Notes under the pieces: generated by a model
What the model was told of the DNA's origin: nothing
Seen by the model: only the letters and a program-made list of their open reading frames with translations
Database searches by the model: none
Position numbers and translations under genes: made by a program
Assembly: GCF_056746865.1 (NCBI RefSeq)
Contig: NZ_CM163382.1
Length of the DNA stretch: 64,000 nt
Strand: one strand, 5' to 3'
In this document: in pieces, positions 3,001 through 46,433 of the stretch
How positions within the stretch are numbered: the stretch's first letter is position 1
How the letters are laid out: each line of letters begins with the position of its first letter

Positions 3001-6000
3001 GGCGGCCGATGACATTATTAACGCTGCCGAAGCGGGCAATGCGCAAACCATCAGTGGGCAGGTGACGGGTGCCGCGGCGGGCGACACAGTTACCGTTACG
3101 CTGGGTGGCAACACCTACACCGCCACGGTGCAGGCTAATTTAAGCTGGAGCGTTAGCGTGCCGGCGGCGGATATTCAGGCCATCGGCAATGGTAATCTCA
3201 CAGTAAACGCCTCGGTCACTAATGGCGTGGGCAACACCGGCAGCGGCTCGCGCGATATCACGATCGATGCCAATCTGCCTGGCTTGCGGGTCGATACCGT
3301 GGCGGGCGATGATGTTATTAACAGCATTGAGCACAATCAGGCGCTGGTGATAACAGGTAGCAGCACCGGGTTAACGGCGGGAACGGCGTTAACGGTCGAG
3401 ATTAACAACGTTACTTATGGCGCGACGGTATTAGCCGACGGCACGTGGAGCCTCGGTATTCCGGCGGCAGACGTCAGCAACTGGCCTGCGGGTACGGTGG
3501 ATATTACGGTAAGCGGCACCAACAGCGCCGGAACAACCTCTACCATTACCCATCCGGTTACCGTCGATCTGGCGGCGGTCGCCATCACCATTAACACCCT
3601 TTCCGGCGATGATGTGATCAACGCCGTGGAGAAAGGCGAAACGCTGGTCGTAAGCGGCAGCACCAGCGGTGTGGAAGCTGGGCAGACGGTGACCGTCACC
3701 TTTGGCGGTAAAAATTACACCACCACTGTGGAAGCCAACGGCAGCTGGACGGTGAATGTGCCGCCTGCCGATCTCGCTGCGCTACCGGACGGCGCGGGCA
3801 ACGTGCAGGCGAGCGTCAGCAATATTAACGGCAACAGCGCCCAGGCCGATCGCGCGTATAGCGTCGATGCCACCGCGCCGCTTATTACTATCAACACCAT
3901 CGCCAGCGACGATACTCTTAACGTGAGCGAAGCGGGCGCGGGGATCACCATCAGCGGCACCACCACGGCGCAGGCCGGGCAGACGCTGACCGTCACGCTC
4001 AATAACAACACGTACCAGACCACCATTCTCGCGGATGGCACCTGGAGCGTGAACGTTCCGGCAACGGATTTAAGCGGATTAACCGCCAGCAGTTATACCG
4101 TGACTGCGACGGTGAGCGACAAAGCGAGCAACCCGGCAAGCGCCGATCATGCGCTGGCGGTGGACGTTACCGCTCCGGATCTCACCATTAACACCGTCGC
4201 GGGCGATGACATCATCAACGCTATCGAACACGGGCAGGCGCTGGTGGTGAGCGGCACCAGCACGGGCGCGGCGGCAGGCGATGTGGTGACCGTCTCGCTC
4301 AACGGCAAAAACTACACCACCACGCTGGATGCCTCTGGTAACTGGAGCGTCGGTATCCCGGCGGCAGATGTGACGGCGCTGGCAACCGGAAGCCAGACCA
4401 TTACTGCCAGCCTGAGCGATCGCGCGGGCAACAGCGACAGCGCTACCCATAATGTCACCGTTGATCTTAGCGGCCCGACGCTGACCATCAGTACCGTCTC
4501 CGGCGACGACATCATCAATAATGCGGAGAAAACTCAGGATCTGACCATCAGCGGCGGCTCCAGCGGTCTGGCGACCGGCACCACGGTCACCGTGATGTTG
4601 AACGGCCTGGCGTACAGCGCCACCACCGATAGTTCCGGCAACTGGAGCGTTACCGTGCCTGCTTCGGCGGTCGGTGCCCTGGGCGAGGCGGTCTATTCGA
4701 TTAGCGCCAGCGCCACCGACAGCGCGGGCAACAGCGGCAGTACCACCCATACGGTGAATGTCGAATCGCTCCTGCCTGGGGTGATCATTAATACCGTGGC
4801 GGGCGATGACATTATCAACGCCGCTGAAATCGTTGTGGCGCAGACCATCAGCGGTCAGGTCACGGGAACGGCGGTTGCCGGGAATACGGTGATTGTCACC
4901 ATTGGCGGCAATCAATATAACGCCACCGTGCAGTCAGATTTAAGCTGGAGCGTCAGCGTACCGGCGAACGTTTTGCAGGCGCTGGGTAACGGTGAACTGA
5001 CCATCAGCGCCTCGGTGACCAATTCCGCAAATAATACCAGCACCGCGACGCACGATATCGTGATAGATGCCAACCTGCCAGGTCTGCGCGTCGATACCGT
5101 GGCAGGCGATGATGTGATTAACAGCATCGAGCACACTCAGGCGTTGGTGATCACCGGTAGCAGTAGCGGACTGGCGGCGGGCGCGGCGTTGACGGTGGTT
5201 ATCAATAGCGTCACCTACGGCGCAACGGTACTCGCCGATGGCAGCTGGAGCGTCGGTGTTCCGGCGGCAGATGTCACAAACTGGCCTGCGGGAACGGTCA
5301 ATATTGCCGTTTCTGGCACCAATACCGCCGGAACCACAACCAGCATTAGCCATCCGGTCACGGTCGATCTCGCGGCCGTGGCGATTACCATTAACACCCT
5401 TTCCACTGACGATGTGATTAATGCCGCCGAAAAAGGCAGCGATTTGCAGCTCTCCGGCACCACCTCCGATGTGGAAGCGGGGCAAACCATCACCGTTATC
5501 TTCGGCGGCAAAAGCTACACCACCACGGTTGCCGCGGGCGGCACCTGGGGGCTGACAATCCCAGCAGCCGATCTCGCAACCTTGCCTGACGGCGCAGCAA
5601 ACGTCCAGGCCAGCGTCAGCAACGTCGCAGGTAACAGCGCCCAGGCAACGCATGCTTACAGCGTCGATGCCACCGCGCCTTCCGTTACCATCAACACCAT
5701 CGCCACGGACGATATTCTTAACGCCGACGAAGCGGGATCGGCGCTGACCATCAGCGGCACCAGCACGGCGGAAGCCGGGCAGACGGTGACCGTGACGCTA
5801 AACGGCGTCAATTACAGCGGCAACGTGCAGGCAGACGGGAGCTGGAGCGTCAGCGTCCCGACCGGCGATTTAGCTAACCTCACTGCCAGCCCCTATACGG
5901 TGAGCGCAGCGGTCAGCGACAAAGCCGGAAATCCGGCCTCGGCGACGCATAACCTGACGGTGGATCTTGTTGCGCCGGTCGTTACCATTAACACGGTAGC

Positions 6001-9000: not shown

Positions 9001-12000
9001 CGACGTAATTAACGCCGCCGAAAAAGGCACCGACCTGACCCTTTCTGGCAGCACCAGCGGAATTGAAAGCGGGCAAACCGTTACCGTCACTTTTGGCGGT
9101 AAAACCTACACTGCAAGCGTCGCCGCCAACGGTAGCTGGAGTGTGAACGTTCCAGCGGCAGATCTGGCAACTCTGCCAGACGGCGCGGCGAACGTGCAGG
9201 CCAGTGTCAGCAGCGCGAGCGGTAACAGTGCCTCGGCGACCCATGCGTACAGCGTTGACGCCAGCGCACCGACGCTCACCATTAACACCATTGCCAGCGA
9301 CGATATTCTTAACGCCACGGAGGCGGGAAGCCCGCTCACCATCAGCGGCACCAGCACCGCCGAAACCGGGCAGACGGTCACCGTAACCCTTAACGGCGCA
9401 ACCTACAGCGGTAATGTGCAGGCAGACGGTAGCTGGAGCGTCAGCGTTCCCCCTTCAGCCTTAGGCGCGCTGACCGCAAGCAATTACACCGTCAGCGCCA
9501 CGGTCAACGACAAAGCGGGCAACCCCGGCAGCACCAGCCATAATCTGGCGGTAGACACCACCGCGCCGGTTCTCACCATTAACACCGTGGCAGGCGATGA
9601 CATCATCAACGATGCTGAACACGCCCAGGCGCTGGTGATTTCCGGCACCAGCAGCGGCGGGGAAGCGGGCGATGTGGTGAGCGTTGTGCTCAACGGCAAA
9701 ACCTACACCTCCACCCTGGATGCCTCCGGCAACTGGAGCGTTGGCGTTCCGGCGGCGGATGTTACGGCGCTGGGTAGCGGCGCACAGACCATCACCGCCA
9801 GCGTCAGCGATCGGGCGGGTAACAGCGATGACGCCAGCCGCACCGTGACCGTCAGCCTCAGCGCGCCAGTGATTAGCATCAACACCATCGCGGGCGATGA
9901 TGTGATCAACGCGACGGAAAAAGGATCTGATCTGACGCTTTCCGGCACCAGCGATCAGCCTGCGGGTACGGCGATCACCGTTACGCTGAACGGACAAAAC
10001 TACAGCGCCACCACCGACGCCTCCGGCAACTGGAGCGTTACCGTGCCTGCCTCTGCTGTCAGTGCGCTGGGCGAAGCCACCTACAGCGTGACGGCGAGCG
10101 TCACCAATGCTCAGGGTAACAGCAGCACCGCCAGCCATAACGTGCAGGTCAATACCGCGCTGCCGGGCGTCACCATTAATCCGGTGGCGACGGACGATAT
10201 TATCAACGCCGCTGAAGCAGGCAGTGCGCAAACCATCAGCGGCCAGGTAACCGGTGCGGCGGCGGGCAGCACCGTCACCGTTGAACTGGGCGGCAAAACT
10301 TACACCGCCACGGTCCAGGCTGATTTAAGTTGGAGTGTGAGCGTACCTGCCGCCGACTGGCAGGCGCTGGGTAACGGTGAGTTAACGGTTAATGCCTCGG
10401 TGACCAACGCCGTTGGCAACACCGGTAGCGGCACGCGCGATATCACCATCGATGCCAGTCTGCCTGGCCTGCGGGTGGATACCGTCGCGGGTGATGATGT
10501 GGTCAATATCATCGAACACAGTCAGGCGCAGGTGATCACCGGTAGCAGCTCCGGCTTTGCGGTGGGCACGGCGCTGAACGTAGTGATAAATAATCAAACT
10601 TACGCCGCCACGGTGCTGGCGAACGGCAGCTGGAGCGTCGGCGTTCCTGCGACGGATGTCAGTAACTGGCCTGCGGGAACGCTGAATATTACCGTTAGCG
10701 GCGCGAACAGTGCCGGAACGCAAACCAGCATTACCCATCCGCTGACCGTTGATCTCACCACCGTCGCCGTCAGCATAAACAGCATCACCAGCGATGATGT
10801 GATTAACGCCGCCGAAAAAGGCGCGGCGCTAACGCTCTCCGGCAGCACGTCCGGCGTCGAAGCGGGGCAAACCGTTACCATTACTTTTGGCGGTAAAACC
10901 TACACCACCACGGTGGCGGCAAACGGTAGCTGGAGCACCACCGTTCCGGCGGCGGATATGGCGGCCCTGCGTGACGGCGATGCCAGCGCCCAGGTGCGGG
11001 TGACTAACGTCAACGGCAACAGCGCCACGGCAACGCATGAATACAGCGTCGATAGCGCCGCGCCAACGGTCACCATCAACACCATTGCCAGCGATAACAT
11101 CATCAATGCCAGCGAAGCGGCGGCGGGCGTAACGGTGTCCGGCACCAGCACGGCGCAAACCGGGCAGACGCTCACCGTCACGCTTAATGGCACTAACTAC
11201 CAGACCACGGTGCAGGCAGACGGCAGCTGGAGCTTAACGCTGCCCGCCAGCGACTTAACCGCACTTGCCAATAACGGCTACACCCTGACCGCCACGGTCA
11301 GCGATTTGGCGGGTAACCCTGGCAGCGCCAGCAAAGGTGTGACCGTCGATACCACCGCGCCCGTCATCAGCTTTAACACCGTGGCGGGCGACGATGTGAT
11401 TAACAGAGTTGAACACACTCAGGCGCAGATTATCAGCGGCACCGCCACGGGCGCGGTGGCGGGCGACCGTCTGGTGGTGACCATCGCCGGGCAGCAGTAT
11501 GTCACCAGCACCGATGCCAGCGGCAACTGGAGCGTCGGCGTGCCTGCCAGCGTGATTTCCGGCCTTGCAGATGGCACAGTGACTATCAGCGCCACTATCA
11601 CCGATAGCGCAGGCAACAGCAGCACCCAGACGCACAACGTACAGGTAAACACGGCGGCAGTGTCGCTCTCGGTCAGCACCATCAGCGGCGATAATATTAT
11701 TAACGCCGCCGAAGCGGGCAGTGCGCTGACCCTGAGCGGCACCGGAACGAACTTTGCCGCAGGTACAGTGGTGACCGTGTTGCTTAACGGCAAAGGCTAC
11801 AGCGCTACCATTCAGAACAACGGGAGCTGGAGTGTGAACGTGCCGGCGGCAGACGTCGCGGCACTGGCGGATGGCACCAGCTACACGGTTAGCGCCTCCG
11901 CCCAGGATAGCGCCGGAAACAGCGCCACGGCCTCGCGCAGTGTGGCGGTGGATCTCACCGCGCCGGTTATCAGCATAAACACGGTTTCAACGGACGACCG

Positions 12001-17251: not shown

Positions 17252-19414
17252 ATGAAAAAAAATGCCCAGTCCGTGGAAGCCTGGCTGGAGGCGATGATCG
17301 CCGTGGCGCGTTATTACCGCCTTGATTTTTCTCAGGAGAATGTGCGCGCGACCGTCAACTGGGAGCGCGACAGTAAGCGGGAGGAGTTACTCACCGACAT
17401 GGCGCGGCAGTTGGGGATGGGGCTTCGGCTGGTGGAGTTCTCCACCGACTCGCTCAACCCGTGGCGGCTGCCGTTGATCGCCGTTTTTGATAATCAACAA
17501 ATTGGCGTGATCACCCGCCGTGACAATCACGACAATATCAGCATTCAGTTTAGCGGTGACGAAGGGCTGGAAACTACGCTTAACGTCGCGGATGTTGAGG
17601 ATAAAATCGTTGAACTGGCGCTACTGCGCCCGCTCAGCGCCATCCCTGACGCGCGGGTAGATGACTATATTCGCCCGTATCAGGCGAACTGGTTCTGGAG
17701 CCTTTCGCTAAAAGACTGGCGGCGCTACGGCGATATTATGCTGGCCTCGCTGGTGGCGAACGTGCTGGCGCTGGCGGCGATGATTTTCTCGATGCAGGTT
17801 TACGACCGGGTGGTTCCGGCGCAATCGTACCCGACGCTATGGGTGCTGTTCGCCGGGGTGATGATGGCGATCCTGTTTGAGTTCTGTATGCGCATGGTGC
17901 GCACACATCTTTCGGATGTGATCGGCAAGCGGGCGGATCTGCGCATTTCGGATCGCGTTTTTGGTCACGCATTACGGCTGAAAAATAACGTGCGATCGAA
18001 ATCCACCGGATCGTTTATCTCGCAGATCCGCGAGCTGGAATCGGTGCGGGAGCTGATTACTTCCACCACCATCGGCGCGGTGGCGGATCTGCCGTTCTTC
18101 CTGCTGTTTGTCTTTATTTTATGGATGATCGGCGGCTGGCTGGTGCTGGTGGTTTTGCTGGCGCTGCCGTTATTGGTGATCCCCGGCCTGCTGGTGCAAC
18201 GCCCGCTGGCGCGGCTGGCGAACGAAGGGATGCGCGAGTCGGCGGTGCGTAACGCTACGCTGGTGGAAGCCGTGCAGTCGATTGAAGATATTAAGCTGCT
18301 GCGCGCCGAACAGCGTTTTCAGAATCAGTGGAACCACACCAACGACGTGGCCTCGTCCATCAGCATGAAGCAACGTTTTCTCACCGGGCTACTGCTCACC
18401 TGGACCCAGGAAGTGCAGTCCATCGTTTACGTCGTGGTGCTGTTGGTGGGCTGCTTTATGGTAATGAACGGTGACATGACCACCGGCGCGCTGGTCGGGA
18501 CGACGATCCTGGCTTCGCGCACCATCGCGCCGCTGTCGCAGATATCCGGCGTGCTCTCGCGCTGGCAGCAGGCGAAAGTGGCGCGCAACGGACTTGATGA
18601 ACTGATGAAGCGCCCGGTGGATCAGCCGGAACACGGCAAACTGGTGCATAAAGCGGTGCTACACGGCAATTATCAGTTCAGCAACGCTATCTTTTATTAC
18701 GATGAAGAAGAGAAAATTGCCGATGTGGCGATTGGCAAACTCAACATTCAGGCCGGAGAGAAAATCGCCATTCTTGGGCGCAACGGCGCGGGTAAATCAA
18801 CGCTACTGCAAATGCTCGCCGGAATGCGTATCGCCCAGCAGGGGCAGGTGCTGCTGGATAACATCAGCATCGGTCAGCTTGATCCGGCGGATCTGCGCCG
18901 CGACATGGGGCTGCTGAGCCAGACCGGGAGACTCTTTTTCGGTTCGCTGCGGGAAAACCTGACGATGGGGATGCCGGAAGCCAGCGATGAAGATATCGAA
19001 CGCGCGTTAACCCTCAGCGGGGCGCTGCCGTTTGTGCAGAAGCAGAAAAACGGCCTCAACTACATGATTCAGGAAGGGGGATTTGGCCTCTCTGGTGGTC
19101 AGCGGCAAACGCTGCTGCTGGCGCGGCTGCTCATCTCTCAACCCAATATCGTGCTGCTCGATGAACCCAGCGCCTCGCTGGACGAAATGGCGGAAGCGCA
19201 TTTAATCGAACAACTGAAACAGTGGATTGGCCATCGCACGCTGATTATCGCCACTCACCGCACGGCGATGCTGCAACTGGTGGACCGCATTATCGTGATG
19301 GATCAGGGGCGGATTGTGATGGATGGCGCGAAAGAGGCCATTTTGCGTGAACAGAGCGAACCCACGGCGCGACGGGTGGTGTTGCAGGAGAAGAATAAGG
19401 GGTCTGCCGCATGA
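17252..19414 (+). CDS. T1SS ABC transporter (ATPase/permease, HlyB/LapB-like) with N-terminal C39-like domain
   Basis: 720 aa. Walker A GRNGAGKST, ABC signature LSGGQRQ, Walker B IVLLDEP and H-loop ATHR are present, with hydrophobic segments in the middle. Starts 4 bp after the adhesin stop and overlaps the next gene by 4 bp. Confidence 0.9.
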   Translation: MKKNAQSVEAWLEAMIAVARYYRLDFSQENVRATVNWERDSKREELLTDMARQLGMGLRLVEFSTDSLNPWRLPLIAVFDNQQIGVITRRDNHDNISIQFSGDEGLETTLNVADVEDKIVELALLRPLSAIPDARVDDYIRPYQANWFWSLSLKDWRRYGDIMLASLVANVLALAAMIFSMQVYDRVVPAQSYPTLWVLFAGVMMAILFEFCMRMVRTHLSDVIGKRADLRISDRVFGHALRLKNNVRSKSTGSFISQIRELESVRELITSTTIGAVADLPFFLLFVFILWMIGGWLVLVVLLALPLLVIPGLLVQRPLARLANEGMRESAVRNATLVEAVQSIEDIKLLRAEQRFQNQWNHTNDVASSISMKQRFLTGLLLTWTQEVQSIVYVVVLLVGCFMVMNGDMTTGALVGTTILASRTIAPLSQISGVLSRWQQAKVARNGLDELMKRPVDQPEHGKLVHKAVLHGNYQFSNAIFYYDEEEKIADVAIGKLNIQAGEKIAILGRNGAGKSTLLQMLAGMRIAQQGQVLLDNISIGQLDPADLRRDMGLLSQTGRLFFGSLRENLTMGMPEASDEDIERALTLSGALPFVQKQKNGLNYMIQEGGFGLSGGQRQTLLLARLLISQPNIVLLDEPSASLDEMAEAHLIEQLKQWIGHRTLIIATHRTAMLQLVDRIIVMDQGRIVMDGAKEAILREQSEPTARRVVLQEKNKGSAA

Positions 19415-20586
19415 ACGGACAACTGCAATACAACCGTGGCCTGACTGAACCCCGCTTGCCGCGTTCGGCGCTGGCGGTACGCGTTACCGCTGTGATGCTG
19501 CTCTGTTTTCTCGGCTGGGCGTGGTACTTCCAGCTTGATGAAGTCACCACCGGCAGCGGCACGGTAGAACCCTCCGGGCGCGAACAGGTGGTGCAGTCGC
19601 TGGAAGGCGGAATTCTGTATCATCTCGACGTCAAGGTTGGCGATATTGTTGAACAGGGCCAGCCACTGGCGCAGCTTAACCGCACCAAAACGGAATCCGA
19701 CGTCCAGGAAGCAATGTCGCGGCTGTACGCGGCGCTGGCAACCTCGGCGCGGCTGCGGGCGGAAGTGAGTAATAAACCGCTGGTCTTCCCTGACGAACTG
19801 AATAAATTCCCCGAACTTATCGAGTCGGAAACGGCGTTGTACAACACTCGCCGCGATGGGCTGAACAAAGCCACCACCGGGCTGACGCAGGGGATTAGCC
19901 TGGTCAACCGCGAACTGGCGATGACCCAGCCGCTGGTAAAACAGGGGGCGGCGAGCAGCGTTGAAGTGCTGCGCCTGCAACGCCAGGCCAATGAACTGGA
20001 AAACAAACTCAGCGACGTGCGCACGCAATACTACGTTCAGGCGCGCGAAGAGTTAGCAAAAGCCAATGCGGAAGTGGAAACCCAGCGTTCGGTGATCCGT
20101 GGACGGGAAGACTCCCTCACCCGGCTCAACTTTACCGCGCCGGTACGTGGCATTGTTCAGGACATTGACGTCACCACGGTTGGCGGCGTTATTGCCCCCG
20201 GTGGTAAACTGATGACCATCGTGCCGCTGGATGAGCAACTGCTGATCGAGGCAAAAATCTCCCCGCGCGATGTGGCGTTTATCCATCCGGGGCAAAAATC
20301 GCTGGTGAAAATAACCGCCTACGATTACTCCATCTACGGCGGCCTGCCGGGAGAAGTGGCGGTGATATCACCAGACACCGTGCAGGATGAAGTACGGCGC
20401 GATGTTTATTACTATCGGGTGTACATTCGCACTTTCAGCAACCATCTGGAAAATAAAAGCAAACAGCAGTTTCCGATATTCCCCGGTATGGTGGCGACGG
20501 TCGATATCCGCACCGGCAAAAAAAGCGTGCTGGATTATCTGTTGAAACCCTTTAACAAAGCACAGGAGGCGTTGCGCGAACGATGA
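19411..20586 (+). CDS. T1SS periplasmic adaptor (HlyD-family membrane fusion protein)
   Basis: 391 aa. N-terminal transmembrane helix ([20 protein letters not shown]), long coiled-coil-prone central region, C-terminal beta domain; start overlaps the ABC transporter stop. Confidence 0.85.
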
Positions 20587-20990
20587 ACATTAGCGATGTA
20601 GCAAAAATTACCGGCCTGACCAGCAAAGCCATTCGCTTCTATGAAGAGAAGGGGCTGGTGACGCCGCCGATGCGCAGCGAAAATGGTTATCGAACCTACA
20701 CGCAGCAGCATCTCAACGAACTGACCTTACTGCGCCAGGCGCGCCAGGTGGGCTTTAACCTGGAAGAGAGCGGCGAACTGGTGAATCTGTTTAACGATCC
20801 GCAGCGTCACAGTGCCGACGTCAAACGTCGCACCCTGGAGAAAGTGGCGGAGATCGAGCGACATATCGAAGAACTGCAATCCATGCGCAACCAGCTGTTG
20901 GCGCTGGCGAATGCCTGCCCTGGCGATGACAGCGCCGACTGCCCGATTATCGAAAATCTCTCCGGCTGCTGTCATCATCGGGCGGGGTGA
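20583..20990 (+). CDS. cueR: Copper-responsive MerR-family regulator CueR
   Basis: 135 aa, [25 protein letters not shown]...[24 protein letters not shown], recognised as E. coli CueR with its C-terminal Cys metal-binding motif. Confidence 0.95.
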
Positions 20991-20993
20991 AAA

Positions 20994-21197
20994 TCAGTTA
21001 ATCCCCGTTTGCACCGAAAGAATATGCTGCAAACTTTCTACCATAATGCGCCCCGACTGAAATAAGCCTTCCTGGATTTCGTTGTTAACATTCACAGCGT
21101 GAACCAGGGAGGCTAATAACACCACTTGCAAGAAGGCAAAAATAAACGCACCGATAATCATAATATGCGTCAGGGGGATTTTCCTTTGCTCTTTCAT
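20994..21197 (-). CDS. Small single-pass membrane protein (67 aa), last gene of the autotransporter operon
   Basis: Hydrophobic helix IMIIGAFIFAFLQVVLLASLV. Its ATG overlaps the stop of the upstream lipoprotein gene (ATGA), suggesting translational coupling. Confidence 0.45.
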   Translation of the reverse strand: MKEQRKIPLTHIMIIGAFIFAFLQVVLLASLVHAVNVNNEIQEGLFQSGRIMVESLQHILSVQTGIN

Positions 21198-21616
21198 TTT
21201 AAATAACCCACAAACTGACCTTCCTTCATTAAGGCGACTTTTCCCGTGTGGTGATAAACAATGACGTTATAAAGACCTGACTGATAAACAGTGGCATCTT
21301 TATTGTCTTCATCAATTGCACATAATGAATCATTGAGATAAGCAAAGTTCTTACTGCTCATTCTAAAGGTCATGCCAAATCCTTTATAAATAGATTTTTT
21401 AGCGGCCTGGGCATGTTGTGCGGCTTCTGCATTTTTAAATGCCTGCGCTTCTGATGCACTTAAAATAGCCGCCTGACGCTGTTGTTCTGCGAGATAACAG
21501 GTGTCATGGCTGACGCCCTGCGCCTGGCAATCTGCGATGCGGGAAGTGGGTGAACTACAGCCAGCCAGTAATATAACCGCCAGCAGGGAAAACGATTTAA
21601 TGGAGCTATTCATCAT
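21194..21616 (-). CDS. Lipoprotein (140 aa) encoded immediately downstream of the trimeric autotransporter
   Basis: Signal peptide with lipobox LLAGC|SS; same strand as and 53 bp downstream of the autotransporter gene. Confidence 0.7.
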   Translation of the reverse strand: MMNSSIKSFSLLAVILLAGCSSPTSRIADCQAQGVSHDTCYLAEQQRQAAILSASEAQAFKNAEAAQHAQAAKKSIYKGFGMTFRMSSKNFAYLNDSLCAIDEDNKDATVYQSGLYNVIVYHHTGKVALMKEGQFVGYLK

Positions 21617-21669
21617 TGTTAACCTTAAATAATGTACGGAAAATTGCGAATAAGAAATTGCTGTTAAAA

Positions 21670-23454
21670 TTAGAACGAATATCCCACGCCGACACCCGCA
21701 CCGAAATCAGATTGTGTATCCGCAGAAATACCTGCTTTAAGTACCGTATGCGTTCCGGCATTAAAAGATGTTCCTACAGACACCGCAGATTCACCGTTGT
21801 ACGTTCCCGCTCCCGCTGACACCATCATCAAGTCACCGGTTTTCACCTGTGGTTGTGAGGCGATAGCGATGGCAGATGCAGTTCCCGCATTGGCTTCTTT
21901 ACGATTGTCCTCAACTTCGTTTTTCAGAGAATCGAAATGGTTATTGAGCGTAGTAATCTGCTGGCTATTATCCGCTACTCGTTTTTGCGTGTTGCTTAAC
22001 TGCTGATGCGTTTGGGTTACGTCTTGTGTCAGGCTGTCAATTTGTTCATGCGTTTGTGTTGAGTCTTGCGCCAGACGCTGAATTTGTTCCCCGTACTGCA
22101 CACTATCGATATGCTGTTGCGTTGCCTGGTTAGTCGCCAGAGTATCTATTTTTTGTTTTTGTTCTGCTGCAGTACGCGCATTCGCATCATTTTGTGCTCT
22201 CAGTCCGGCGTTAACCATCTCTTGATAATGTGCGTTGGTCTGGGCATCGCCAAGTGCGGAAACCGTTTTTTGCGTCGCGTCGATTTGTTTCTGCTGATCG
22301 TCCATTTGTTGCTGCTGGGTGTCAGCTTGTGCCTGTTGCGCATTGGCAGCGGCTGTCTGTCTGGCGTCAATCATGCTCTGATATCGGGCGGCAGTCTGCA
22401 CATCCCCGGTGGCGGCAACGGTTTTCCGGGTTTCGTCGAGTTGTTGCTGCTGGTCAGCAATATCGCTGCGGTTCTGTTCGATATTATTTTTGTTTTCTGT
22501 CACAGCACCGGAAAGTTTGACGCCGTTCATCAGAGCGGTGTTGGCGTTAGCGTTGGCATGGTCAGCCGTTGACTGGGCATGTGCGACATCGCCTTTTATG
22601 TTGGTGACGTCTGACTGCACTGCGGAGACATCATTACGGGTGTCGGCGATGGCGGCTTTATTGGCATCAATATCCGTCTGCGCCACCATAATGGCGTGCT
22701 GCGCGTCATCAGCTTTCATTGAAGCCCAGTTGGCGACATGTTGTGCGTCCTGAATGGCGGTATCCTGCCCGTTGTCGCGGACGATCTGTTTTTGCTCGTT
22801 TGATGCCAACAGTTTCTGCTGGTCGGCAATATCGCTGCGGTTCTGTTCGATGTTGTTTTTGTTTTCTGTCACAGCACCGGAAAGTTTGACGCCGTTCATC
22901 AGAGCGGTGTTGGCGTTAGCGTTGGCATGGTCAGCCGTTGACTGGGCATGTGCGACATCGCCTTTTATGTTGGTGACGTCTGACTGCACTGCGGAGACAT
23001 CATTACGGGTGTCGGTGATGGCGGCTTTGTTGGCATCAATATCCGTCTGCGCCACCGTGATGGCGTGCTGCGCGTCATCAGCTTTCAGTGAAGCCCAGTT
23101 GGCGGCATGTTGTGCGTCCTGAATGGCGGTATCCTGCCCGTTGTCGCGGTCGGTCTGCGCTTGATTGGTTATCGGGTTCAGCGTATTGGCGGGCTGTACG
23201 GGAGAGGCAGCTGTATTTTCCTGAGGTGTCGTTGTCCGGTAATCATGCGCAATCAGATAATTTTGTGCGGCTGCACTATTCCCTGTCCTTTCTAAAAATC
23301 GACCAATTTTCTGATCAATTTCCGATTGCGACATTCCTGGCTGGATTGCCGTTAATTCTGTCGTTGCCGCCTCAACAGTATCACCCGCAAACGCAGATGG
23401 ACTTACCGCGGTAGCAACAACGACAGCCAGTAAAGACAGCTTTACAGTTTTCAT
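21670..23454 (-). CDS. Trimeric autotransporter adhesin-like protein with YadA-like C-terminal anchor (~594 aa)
   Basis: Sec signal MKTVKLSLLAVVVATAVSPSAFA; long Q/A/D-rich coiled-coil-like stalk with internal repeats; C-terminus GTASAIAIASQPQ...GAGVGVGYSF matches the YadA-type anchor pattern. ATG chosen at 23454; the ORF track extends to a TTG at 23472. Confidence 0.8.
   Translation of the reverse strand: MKTVKLSLLAVVVATAVSPSAFAGDTVEAATTELTAIQPGMSQSEIDQKIGRFLERTGNSAAAQNYLIAHDYRTTTPQENTAASPVQPANTLNPITNQAQTDRDNGQDTAIQDAQHAANWASLKADDAQHAITVAQTDIDANKAAITDTRNDVSAVQSDVTNIKGDVAHAQSTADHANANANTALMNGVKLSGAVTENKNNIEQNRSDIADQQKLLASNEQKQIVRDNGQDTAIQDAQHVANWASMKADDAQHAIMVAQTDIDANKAAIADTRNDVSAVQSDVTNIKGDVAHAQSTADHANANANTALMNGVKLSGAVTENKNNIEQNRSDIADQQQQLDETRKTVAATGDVQTAARYQSMIDARQTAAANAQQAQADTQQQQMDDQQKQIDATQKTVSALGDAQTNAHYQEMVNAGLRAQNDANARTAAEQKQKIDTLATNQATQQHIDSVQYGEQIQRLAQDSTQTHEQIDSLTQDVTQTHQQLSNTQKRVADNSQQITTLNNHFDSLKNEVEDNRKEANAGTASAIAIASQPQVKTGDLMMVSAGAGTYNGESAVSVGTSFNAGTHTVLKAGISADTQSDFGAGVGVGYSF
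22440..23160. repeat. Near-identical ~369-bp tandem duplication (two copies) inside the autotransporter stalk
   Basis: Sequence from ctgctggtcagcaatatcgctgcggttctgttcg at 22447 recurs at 22816 with few mismatches; encodes the duplicated ~123-aa block DNGQDTAIQDAQH...NIEQNRSDIADQQ. Confidence 0.85.
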
Positions 23455-23472
23455 GCATTTTTTCTCTTTCAA

Positions 23473-23820
23473 AGTAAGTCACATATTTGTTTCTATAAGC
23501 AACGTAAAACGTTGTTATAAGAATTAATCTGCGTTGCAATTTGATCGAAATCTACGCCGCCATTTGTGTGATGTAAAGCGCATTTTTGTCTGGTGTAAGC
23601 GTAAACATCACCAATAAGAAACAAAAAATGTTTCTTATATAAATAAAATCGAAAATCATTTTGTGCTCTTTCAATGTAAAAAAGAGTAAAGACTTGTTTT
23701 GATAAGCGAAATAAATTCTGTTTCTGGACTAAACGTGAAGCGGTTCCTGATGTGTGCTAAAATGCGTTTCTTTGATAAATCTCAATTTTTAAGAGGTTTA
23801 CGCCAGGCAGGAAAATTTAA
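23473..23820. promoter_or_regulatory. AT-rich divergent control region between the autotransporter operon and a small ORF
   Basis: About 350 bp of markedly AT-rich non-coding DNA; perfect palindrome aagaaaca-aaaaa-tgtttctt at 23616-23636. Confidence 0.4.
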
Positions 23821-24183
23821 ATGAATGAATTTGAGAAGATTTTTAATGAAATGAATCTGGACCGGGCATTGCTACCGATCCTTTTTCGTTCGAACCGGTC
23901 AACAGTGTGGAAATATTTAAGTGGCGATAGTACGGCTCCTGCCTCAGCTATGTCACTGATTATGCTGTTGCAGTTAATCCAGAAACGAAACCCCGATCTG
24001 TTAGCCGAATGGTTAACGCTTTCTGATTTCACCATTCCGCCAGAAGTTTACCTGGACCAGCCTGATTACTGGAAAGGGTGGGTGTATACGCAACACAAGG
24101 TCAATAAAAACGTCCTGGAATATCTAAAAAAACATTATCCGGATGAAGACCAAAAAAACATGAATAAAGGTAGTGACGAGTAA
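23821..24183 (+). CDS. Hypothetical small protein (120 aa), possible helix-turn-helix regulator
   Basis: AT-rich ORF divergent from the autotransporter; segment SNRSTVWKYLSGDSTAPASAMSLIMLL loosely resembles an XRE-type HTH. No confident family assignment. Confidence 0.4.
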   Translation: MNEFEKIFNEMNLDRALLPILFRSNRSTVWKYLSGDSTAPASAMSLIMLLQLIQKRNPDLLAEWLTLSDFTIPPEVYLDQPDYWKGWVYTQHKVNKNVLEYLKKHYPDEDQKNMNKGSDE

Positions 24184-24194
24184 TTTGCCAATGC

Positions 24195-24365
<171 letters not shown>

Positions 24366-24367
24366 CA

Positions 24368-32809: not shown

Positions 32810-32930
32810 GATTGCCTGATGCGCTACGCTTATCAGGCCTACGAGGATCGTGCAATATATTGATTTTGCAAGATTGTGTAGGCCGGATAAGGCGTTTACG
32901 CCGCATCTGGCATGAACAGTGTGCATTTTG
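32810..32930. repeat. REP/BIME palindromic repeats downstream of ybbP
   Basis: gcctgatgcgctacgcttatcaggcctac and gtaggccggataaggcgtttacgccgcatc motifs. Confidence 0.6.
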
Positions 32931-32997: not shown

Positions 32998-33305
32998 TAG
33001 CTACGTTTCCTCAGTTATTCAATAAACTGACGGATCAGTTCCAGCAGCGCGATTAGCGCCTTAAGAACGATGAGAACTGCCTCTCTCCAAATTAGAGCAC
33101 CAGAATCAGCACCACCTGTATCCTGACCAGGACTTAAAAGTACTTTTCCGCACTGCGGTAATCCCTTGAGGCAGTATCACTACTAGCGTCGGGATTGTAT
33201 CGCCAACATAGCTGTTTGAATATGTAGGCATCCTGACTTATAATTCATTTGCTAGATGAGGACTGTTTCATTTCTGCCCGGAACCACCAAGTCTTGGGCG
33301 GAAAA

Positions 33306-33340
33306 AATAAAAAAACCGACTGTCATGTCGGTTTTTTTAT
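33306..33340. terminator. Bidirectional rho-independent terminator downstream of selU
   Basis: aaaaaaaccgac-tgtcat-gtcggttttttt: stem-loop flanked by an A-run and a T-run. Confidence 0.65.
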
Positions 33341-46349: not shown

Positions 46350-46364
46350 ACCTGAATTTACCGC

Positions 46365-46395
46365 AAAAAAAGCCACGGTATAAACCGTGGCAAAA
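46365..46395. terminator. Bidirectional terminator between glxK and allE
   Basis: aaaaaaa-gccacggt-ataa-accgtggc-aaaa. Confidence 0.6.
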
Positions 46396-46433
46396 TCCAA
46401 CATAGCTAAAAATAATCAGGCGAGTGGTATGAC

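Follow-up and report, generated by a model that had tools for sequence, protein, structure and literature searches.

Four-base ATGA start/stop overlaps between neighboring genes are well known in bacterial operons, together with coupling of the two genes by termination and reinitiation of translation. Promoters that lie within an upstream gene are familiar as well, as with the rpoS promoter inside nlpD and the ftsZ promoters inside ftsA and ddlB. In EHEC, O-island 28 (OI-28; tolC28, rtxA28/rtxB28, hlyB28, and hlyD28) has been described as an adhesin secretion system that is activated by RstA and Ca2+ (PMC12758282). Furthermore, cueR has been predicted to belong to a ybaS-ybaT-cueR operon in E. 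coli K-12 (PMC1526738). Here, we describe a locus at which the secretion system and the copper regulator share four bases. It lies in a stretch of 64,000 nucleotides (contig NZ_CM163382.1 of RefSeq assembly GCF_056746865.1), which we refer to as the window. The locus itself, the transcription start sites, and the pseudogene call discussed below are already in public data, and we found no description that connects them.

The locus is OI-28 of EHEC O157:H7. Over the stretches compared (positions 19900 to 21300 and 20000 to 20700), the window is 100% identical to the chromosome of E. coli 118UI (NZ_CP032515.1), in which the annotation gives the upstream order copA, glsA, ybaT, a TolC-family gene, and the adhesin gene. 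The OI-28 gene set (TolC-like gene, giant adhesin, ABC gene, and adaptor gene) thus lies between ybaT and cueR in 118UI, and the order in EDL933 is the same, with the adaptor gene at 603675 to 604850 and cueR at 604847 to 605254. The adaptor (WP_001014327.1) and CueR have identical protein accessions in the two strains. Between positions 19411 and 20990 of the window, EDL933 differs at 42 bases and has no indels.

The first-pass annotation of this DNA had claimed that the cueR start codon overlaps the stop codon of the secretion adaptor gene, and the sequence and translations bear this out. Read on the + strand, one ATGA is common to the 3' end of the adaptor gene and the 5' end of cueR (Table 1). 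Both the adaptor stop and the cueR start are genuine, because protein profiles reach the last residue of the one and the first residue of the other and because 77 homologues of the adaptor stop at the same residue. The adaptor scores 327.7 bits against TIGR01843 (type_I_hlyD; cutoff, 208.65), with its residue 391 at profile position 422 of 422, and the ABC ORF that adjoins it scores 836.8 bits against TIGR03375 (cutoff, 693.1). CueR matches the equivalog NF007590 over residues 1 to 135 of 135 (308 bits; cutoff, 244) and the equivalog TIGR02044 at 206.6 bits (cutoff, 147.4). Its translation contains both Cys112 and Cys120, which, going by the E. coli CueR structure, are the Cu(I)-binding cysteines. 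PGAP gives the same coordinates for the junction in every genome examined.

As a motif, the ATGA overlap is an ordinary compact gene junction. The ABC/adaptor junction (19411 to 19414) is likewise ATGA, and 4-bp overlaps are found in five adjacent gene pairs within the 41 kb annotated around the junction. In addition, because CueR begins with Met-Asn (ATG AAC), any ORF that enters in that frame must stop at TGA. The exactness of the join is beyond chance in that neither protein gains or loses a residue, and a deletion between two short ATGA/TGA repeats could yield a join of this kind.

Table 1. Features of the adaptor-cueR junction and its surroundings, in window coordinates except where another sequence is named.
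Feature	Position	Strand	Description
Giant adhesin gene, annotated siiEA, 3' part	ends 17248	+	Upstream of the ABC gene
Type I secretion ABC permease/ATPase gene (hlyB28 of OI-28)	17252-19414	+	TIGR03375; annotated in 118UI and EDL933
HlyD-family type I secretion periplasmic adaptor gene (hlyD28)	19411-20586	+	391 aa; final gene of the island; ends EALRER-TGA
Candidate promoter P2	20180-20218	+	-35 TTGGCG (20180-85), 19-nt spacer, extended -10 TGgTAAACT (20202-10), start A20218
Candidate promoter P1	20387-20423	+	-35 ATGAAG (20387-92), 17-nt spacer, -10 TACTAT (20410-15), start A20423
Terminal 100 nt of the adaptor gene	20487-20586	+	96 nt are upstream of the cueR ATG; only island part kept by island-less E. 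coli, as a frameshifted pseudogene stump
Shine-Dalgarno sequence of cueR, AGGAGG	20564-20569	+	Within adaptor codons Gln-Glu-Ala; 13 nt before the ATG
ATGA, cueR start codon/adaptor stop codon overlap	20583-20586	+	Kept in island-bearing and island-less genomes alike
cueR, Cu(I)-responsive MerR-family regulator gene	20583-20990	+	135 aa; protein WP_001026752.1; opens ATG-AAC-ATT-AGC
naRNA4/CssrE	24241-24318	-	Rfam, above gathering score; just upstream of ybbJ
ES036/CssrF	32835-32877	-	Rfam, above gathering score
AgrB	33252-33340	+	Antisense partner of the dinQ toxin locus; Rfam, above gathering score
STnc480	46361-46427	+	Rfam, above gathering score
Predicted ybaT hairpin	118UI 11608-11630 (left of the window); EDL933 270-292; K-12-type about 4983-5003		Positions in the extracted segments

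Next, we compared the junction with homologous clusters. Outside Escherichia, 77 of 77 adaptor homologues (56 to 73% identical) end in EALRER plus a stop codon of their own, at the same RER residue. In most of them the stop is TAA or TAG, and a GC-rich hairpin usually comes after it. None of these 77 loci has cueR within 4 kb of the adaptor gene. In the same survey, the fusion to cueR was found in all three Escherichia loci (E. sp. E1V33, E. whittamii, and a divergent E. coli) and nowhere else, and the adaptor-cueR fusion has so far been seen in Escherichia only. Escherichia has thus lost the adaptor stop and the operon terminator that are present in other genera. With the terminator lost, transcription arriving at the 3' end of the adaptor gene would have to run on into cueR.

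Where cueR transcripts begin has been mapped in EDL933. Cappable-seq places the start site of cueR (gene 2800) at 604687 and calls it in 8 of 8 growth and stress conditions (PMC10469882, supplementary tables). Its relative read scores run from 4.2 to 9.0 without significant stress regulation, and it gives cueR a leader of 160 nt versus 19 nt for MG1655 in RegulonDB 10.5 (PMC10469882). A second start site within the EDL933 adaptor gene is at 604482 (PMC10469882). On the window, 604687 falls on A20423, at -160 from the cueR ATG (604847 in EDL933), and 604482 falls on A20218, at -365. EDL933 is a proxy for the window strain in these data, and the promoter hexamers are identical in both.

Two candidate promoters, P1 and P2, end at these bases, and both had been picked by a loose position-weight scan before the Cappable-seq data were found. 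P1 (6.1 bits) is the best promoter fit to A20423, and P2 scores 7.66 bits; each leaves a gap of 7 nt between the -10 hexamer and the mapped start. The weight matrix is approximate, being modeled on published frequencies, and P1 and P2 are weak matches given that matches of at least 6 bits arise by chance about 3 times per kb. A strict consensus sigma-70 scan of positions 19400 to 21300 found no promoter on the + strand because both P1 and P2 are too weak for it. Eight in-register sequences from island-bearing Escherichia all have the same P1 hexamers and start base, and 7 island-bearing genomes agree at the P2 hexamers. Both sets include E. whittamii, in which the adaptor gene is 6.7% diverged from that of the window. 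A ninth sequence, from SCPM-O-B-8794, is out of register through a 2-bp insertion and was left out of the P1 hexamer comparison. In this island-bearing strain, the inserted TG lies about 50 nt before the adaptor end and causes a frameshift and an early stop, so that the overlap with cueR is lost. We dropped synonymous-site conservation as proof of a promoter. The identical run at P1 between E. whittamii and the window (63 to 75 nt) is not statistically exceptional, and another identical run, of 68 nt, is found elsewhere in the adaptor gene.

The start-site tables also cover the secretion operon. The island promoter upstream of the tolC-like gene (EDL933 579751) has scores of 0 to 4 in exponential phase and 9 to 65 in stationary phase, where exponential and stationary denote the first four and last four samples in the column order of the start-site table. 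Across the samples in which this promoter changes more than 10-fold, the cueR start site at 604687 stays flat. The EDL933 tables have further sense start sites whose transcripts would likewise enter cueR: 601588 (window 17324), 72 nt inside the ABC gene and active in most conditions, and 603894 (window 19630), 219 nt inside the adaptor gene. On the -160 transcript, the codon for adaptor Met359 (ATG at 20488 to 20490) opens an in-frame upstream ORF of 32 codons that ends at the ATGA. This ORF has no obvious Shine-Dalgarno sequence. Its ATG nearly coincides with the first base of the segment retained by island-less strains, in which it is mutated to ATT. Rfam has no match to a known RNA element near 19 to 22 kb. 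PMC7815308 and PMC10301672 make no mention of cueR in their supplements, PMC2760140 has no entry for it, and matches to "PcueR" in the literature turned out to be plasmid or strain names.

A cueR promoter inside the adaptor gene was the third option offered by the first-pass annotation, and it is the one best supported by the EDL933 5' ends, those at -160 in 8 of 8 conditions and those at -365. Taken together, these data make it probable that cueR is transcribed independently and constitutively from promoters inside the adaptor gene.

We also examined what lies upstream of cueR in E. coli that do not carry the island. The intact adaptor-cueR junction is present in 959 of 5,424 complete E. coli genomes with a BLAST match; the remaining genomes, about 82%, match only from window position 20487 on and share one breakpoint. 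In a K-12-type strain, PGAP calls the 98 bases before cueR an N-terminally truncated, frameshifted pseudogene with a 4-base overlap with cueR. This stump consists of the adaptor gene's final 96 nt, encoding the conserved HlyD C terminus. Its changes, a 1-bp deletion and seven substitutions, all fall in the first roughly 45 nt, and the roughly 55 nt before the cueR ATG are identical to the island-bearing sequence. Seven island-less genomes, including the K-12-type strain and CFT073, have an identical junction and share the derived changes. Because the stump keeps the HlyD C terminus, is frameshifted, and has a shared breakpoint, island-less strains are deletion derivatives. The island-less state is thus the derived one and goes back to a single deletion of about 25.8 kb, which removed both candidate promoters, P1 and P2.

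The AGGAGG of cueR is invariant in all 11 Escherichia sequences aligned, and the RNA around the Shine-Dalgarno sequence and AUG is unstructured (z-scores of +0.4 to +0.9). These z-scores rule out a sequestered start site, in which a hairpin holding the Shine-Dalgarno sequence and AUG would force coupling. At 13 nt, the spacing between AGGAGG and ATG exceeds the optimum, so that coupling could make a real contribution. Coupling at the ATGA is thus possible, and it would not be required, because cueR is preceded by an AGGAGG of its own in RNA that is unstructured, and because island-less strains express cueR behind a broken upstream frame. As for cotranscription, the junction has no space for a terminator, and EDL933 has start sites upstream at 601588 and 579751. 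Since no terminator can be fitted into the 4-nt overlap, read-through from the adaptor gene into cueR is structurally unavoidable, and we infer that it is probably a secondary input.

Other explanations of the junction were weighed against this one. It is barely conceivable that the overlap is an annotation artifact, with the true cueR start or the true adaptor stop elsewhere. The internal Met at residue 30 of CueR could in principle be used as a start, and we found nothing else in favor of an artifact, whereas the equivalog profile spans the whole of CueR, the adaptor profile finishes exactly at the last residue, the 77 homologues share the stop residue, and the PGAP coordinates agree across the genomes examined. 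The first-pass annotation had further held that the island replaced the DNA that normally lies upstream of cueR, that is, that a recently inserted island displaced a native upstream region and promoter. This is highly unlikely, since island-less E. coli retain the 96-bp adaptor stump and the ATGA, and the stump has a 1-bp frameshift, extra substitutions, and a single breakpoint. Furthermore, E. whittamii shares the junction at a divergence of species level, so the junction is old. A recent insertion would nevertheless agree with the absence of cueR next to the secretion cluster in all 77 loci from other genera and with the simple divergon that copA and cueR form in Salmonella (PMC1526738). DNA was thus inserted upstream of cueR at some depth in the Escherichia lineage. 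The first-pass interpretation is therefore supported as far as the internal promoter is concerned, and it is not supported as to the island having replaced normal upstream DNA.

Alternatively, cueR could in effect be the secretion operon's final gene, with most of its expression due to read-through from the island promoters and with its translation coupled to adaptor termination at the ATGA. The overlap without terminator room would suit this arrangement, as would the terminator that homologous operons have at exactly that place and that Escherichia lost, the ATGA at the ABC/adaptor junction upstream, the suboptimal distance of the Shine-Dalgarno sequence from the ATG, and the ABC-internal start site at EDL933 601588, which would feed through in most conditions. 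However, the primary 5' end assigned to cueR, at -160, is present in every condition and holds steady against a more than 10-fold change at the island promoter. Moreover, the large majority of E. coli genomes have no island and a broken frame upstream of cueR, so coupling is dispensable there, and the AGGAGG is invariant in RNA that is unstructured. On this evidence, we regard cueR as unlikely to be simply an operon gene of the secretion system.

The explanation that we favor, independent transcription of cueR from within the adaptor gene, can be put as follows. The locus is a compact and exact fusion that joins the final gene of the OI-28 type I secretion/giant-adhesin cluster to the core copper regulator gene cueR. 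The adaptor's own stop and terminator are gone in Escherichia, with the TGA supplied by the ATG-A of cueR. Two weak constitutive promoters of the sigma-70 type, both within the 3' half of the adaptor gene, would drive cueR, making its expression independent of the secretion operon. The resulting cueR mRNAs would carry leaders of 160 or 365 nt that consist of adaptor coding sequence, and they would be translated from their own AGGAGG. Transcripts from the island upstream would run into cueR and add extra cueR mRNA when the island is induced, and ribosomes that end the adaptor on these long transcripts could reinitiate at the overlapping ATG.

The deletion may also have changed how cueR is wired in strains such as K-12. 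In 118UI and EDL933, a strong terminator is predicted after ybaT, with GCGCAGTAC as its 5' arm, GTACTGCGC as its 3' arm, 5 nt of loop between them, and a T-rich tail (folding energy of the hairpin, -16.3 kcal/mol; z-score, -5.5). The left breakpoint of the deletion is inside this hairpin; the 5' arm and loop are kept in island-less strains, and the 3' arm is gone. No terminator is predicted between ybaT and cueR in these strains, and the loss fits the ybaS-ybaT-cueR operon predicted for K-12 (PMC1526738). The -19 start in RegulonDB is best served by TTGAAT-16-TAACAA (5.6 bits in the position-weight scan). At the position of this -35 hexamer, the ancestral island-bearing sequence is TGGATT (1.5 bits), and the two substitutions that make TTGAAT are fixed in the seven island-less genomes examined. 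An alternative K-12 promoter, TTCGCA-17-TGcTTGAAT (8.4 bits), was rejected because its predicted start near -40 misfits the -19 start. It is possible that one deletion of about 25.8 kb rewired cueR in the island-less majority, K-12 included, by leaving it with a new -19 promoter in the stump and with read-through from glsA-ybaT, an operon induced by acid and copper. We put this forward only tentatively, because the scores are low and the matrix is approximate. If true, the control of cueR would differ between K-12, the model for copper homeostasis, and EHEC or 118UI, and the stump would offer a natural example of a promoter replaced following a deletion. A sigma-54 ChIP-seq peak with a good motif has been reported inside ybaT of K-12, in the sense direction and 679 bp upstream of cueR, which is the next gene downstream (PMC4591121, Table 2).

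The other flank of cueR is variable as well. Homology to K-12-type genomes stops exactly at the cueR stop codon, and a 3.4-kb segment between cueR and ybbJ (20991 to 24367) is absent from K-12. Within it lie two small genes on the minus strand, an apparently truncated gene of the YadA-like family, and an ORF of 120 aa. CFT073 and C325 have a different gene between cueR and ybbJ, which encodes a hypothetical protein of 407 aa. With variable DNA on both sides, cueR and the 96 bp before it form a small conserved islet. In E. coli E25, a urine isolate, an IS1 insertion truncates the 3' end of cueR.

In itself, the junction is of little consequence, as a 4-base overlap and a promoter in an upstream gene are both familiar. 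Its consequences lie in how strains are built and compared. Deletion of OI-28 or hlyD28 in EHEC or UPEC, a step taken in the recent study of the island, would remove or disturb the cueR promoters and could alter copper homeostasis as a side effect. The cueR leaders differ, at 19 nt in K-12 versus 160 or 365 nt in island-bearing strains, as does the transcription arriving from upstream, and results on cueR expression from K-12 may not transfer. In addition, the "hypothetical pseudogene" that PGAP places before cueR in thousands of genomes is explained as the stump of hlyD28.

Lastly, we compared the locus with the systems that it most resembles. Like ATGA-coupled operon pairs, the junction has both genes on the same strand, an ATGA, and a Shine-Dalgarno sequence in the last codons of the upstream gene. 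Unlike them, it joins functionally unrelated genes, one for an adhesin secretion adaptor and one for a copper sensor, and cueR has mapped start sites of its own. As with rpoS within nlpD and ftsZ within ftsA and ddlB, the primary 5' ends map within the upstream ORF, whose codons also serve as promoter hexamers. However, the adaptor gene and cueR physically overlap as well, and here the embedded promoters have been deleted in most strains and a different start site has been substituted. The cluster shares an LssB-type ABC protein (TIGR03375), an HlyD adaptor, and a TolC-like protein with the giant-adhesin type I secretion clusters of the BapABCD, SiiCDEF, and LapBCE type, and its giant, repetitive adhesin, annotated as "BapA-related adhesin SiiEA," likens it to them further. 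In the 77 related clusters examined, a stop codon of its own closes the adaptor gene, usually with a terminator hairpin behind it, whereas in the window an overlapping regulator gene follows it. OI-28 as described in EHEC has the same location between ybaT and cueR and the same gene order, and the adaptor and CueR proteins of EDL933 are identical to those of the window (PMC12758282 for the island). That description treats OI-28 as five genes under the tolC28 promoter and nowhere mentions cueR; the overlap, the internal cueR promoters, and the K-12 stump are absent from it (PMC12758282). It also lists rtxA28/rtxB28, whereas the adhesin of 118UI is annotated as one giant gene, siiEA. In Salmonella, the same regulator gene adjoins copA in a copA-cueR divergon, with neither glsA-ybaT nor a secretion island between them (PMC1526738). 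K-12 has glsA-ybaT and a 96-bp adaptor stump in that interval, whereas the window strain has glsA-ybaT, the ybaT terminator, and the full 25.8-kb island.
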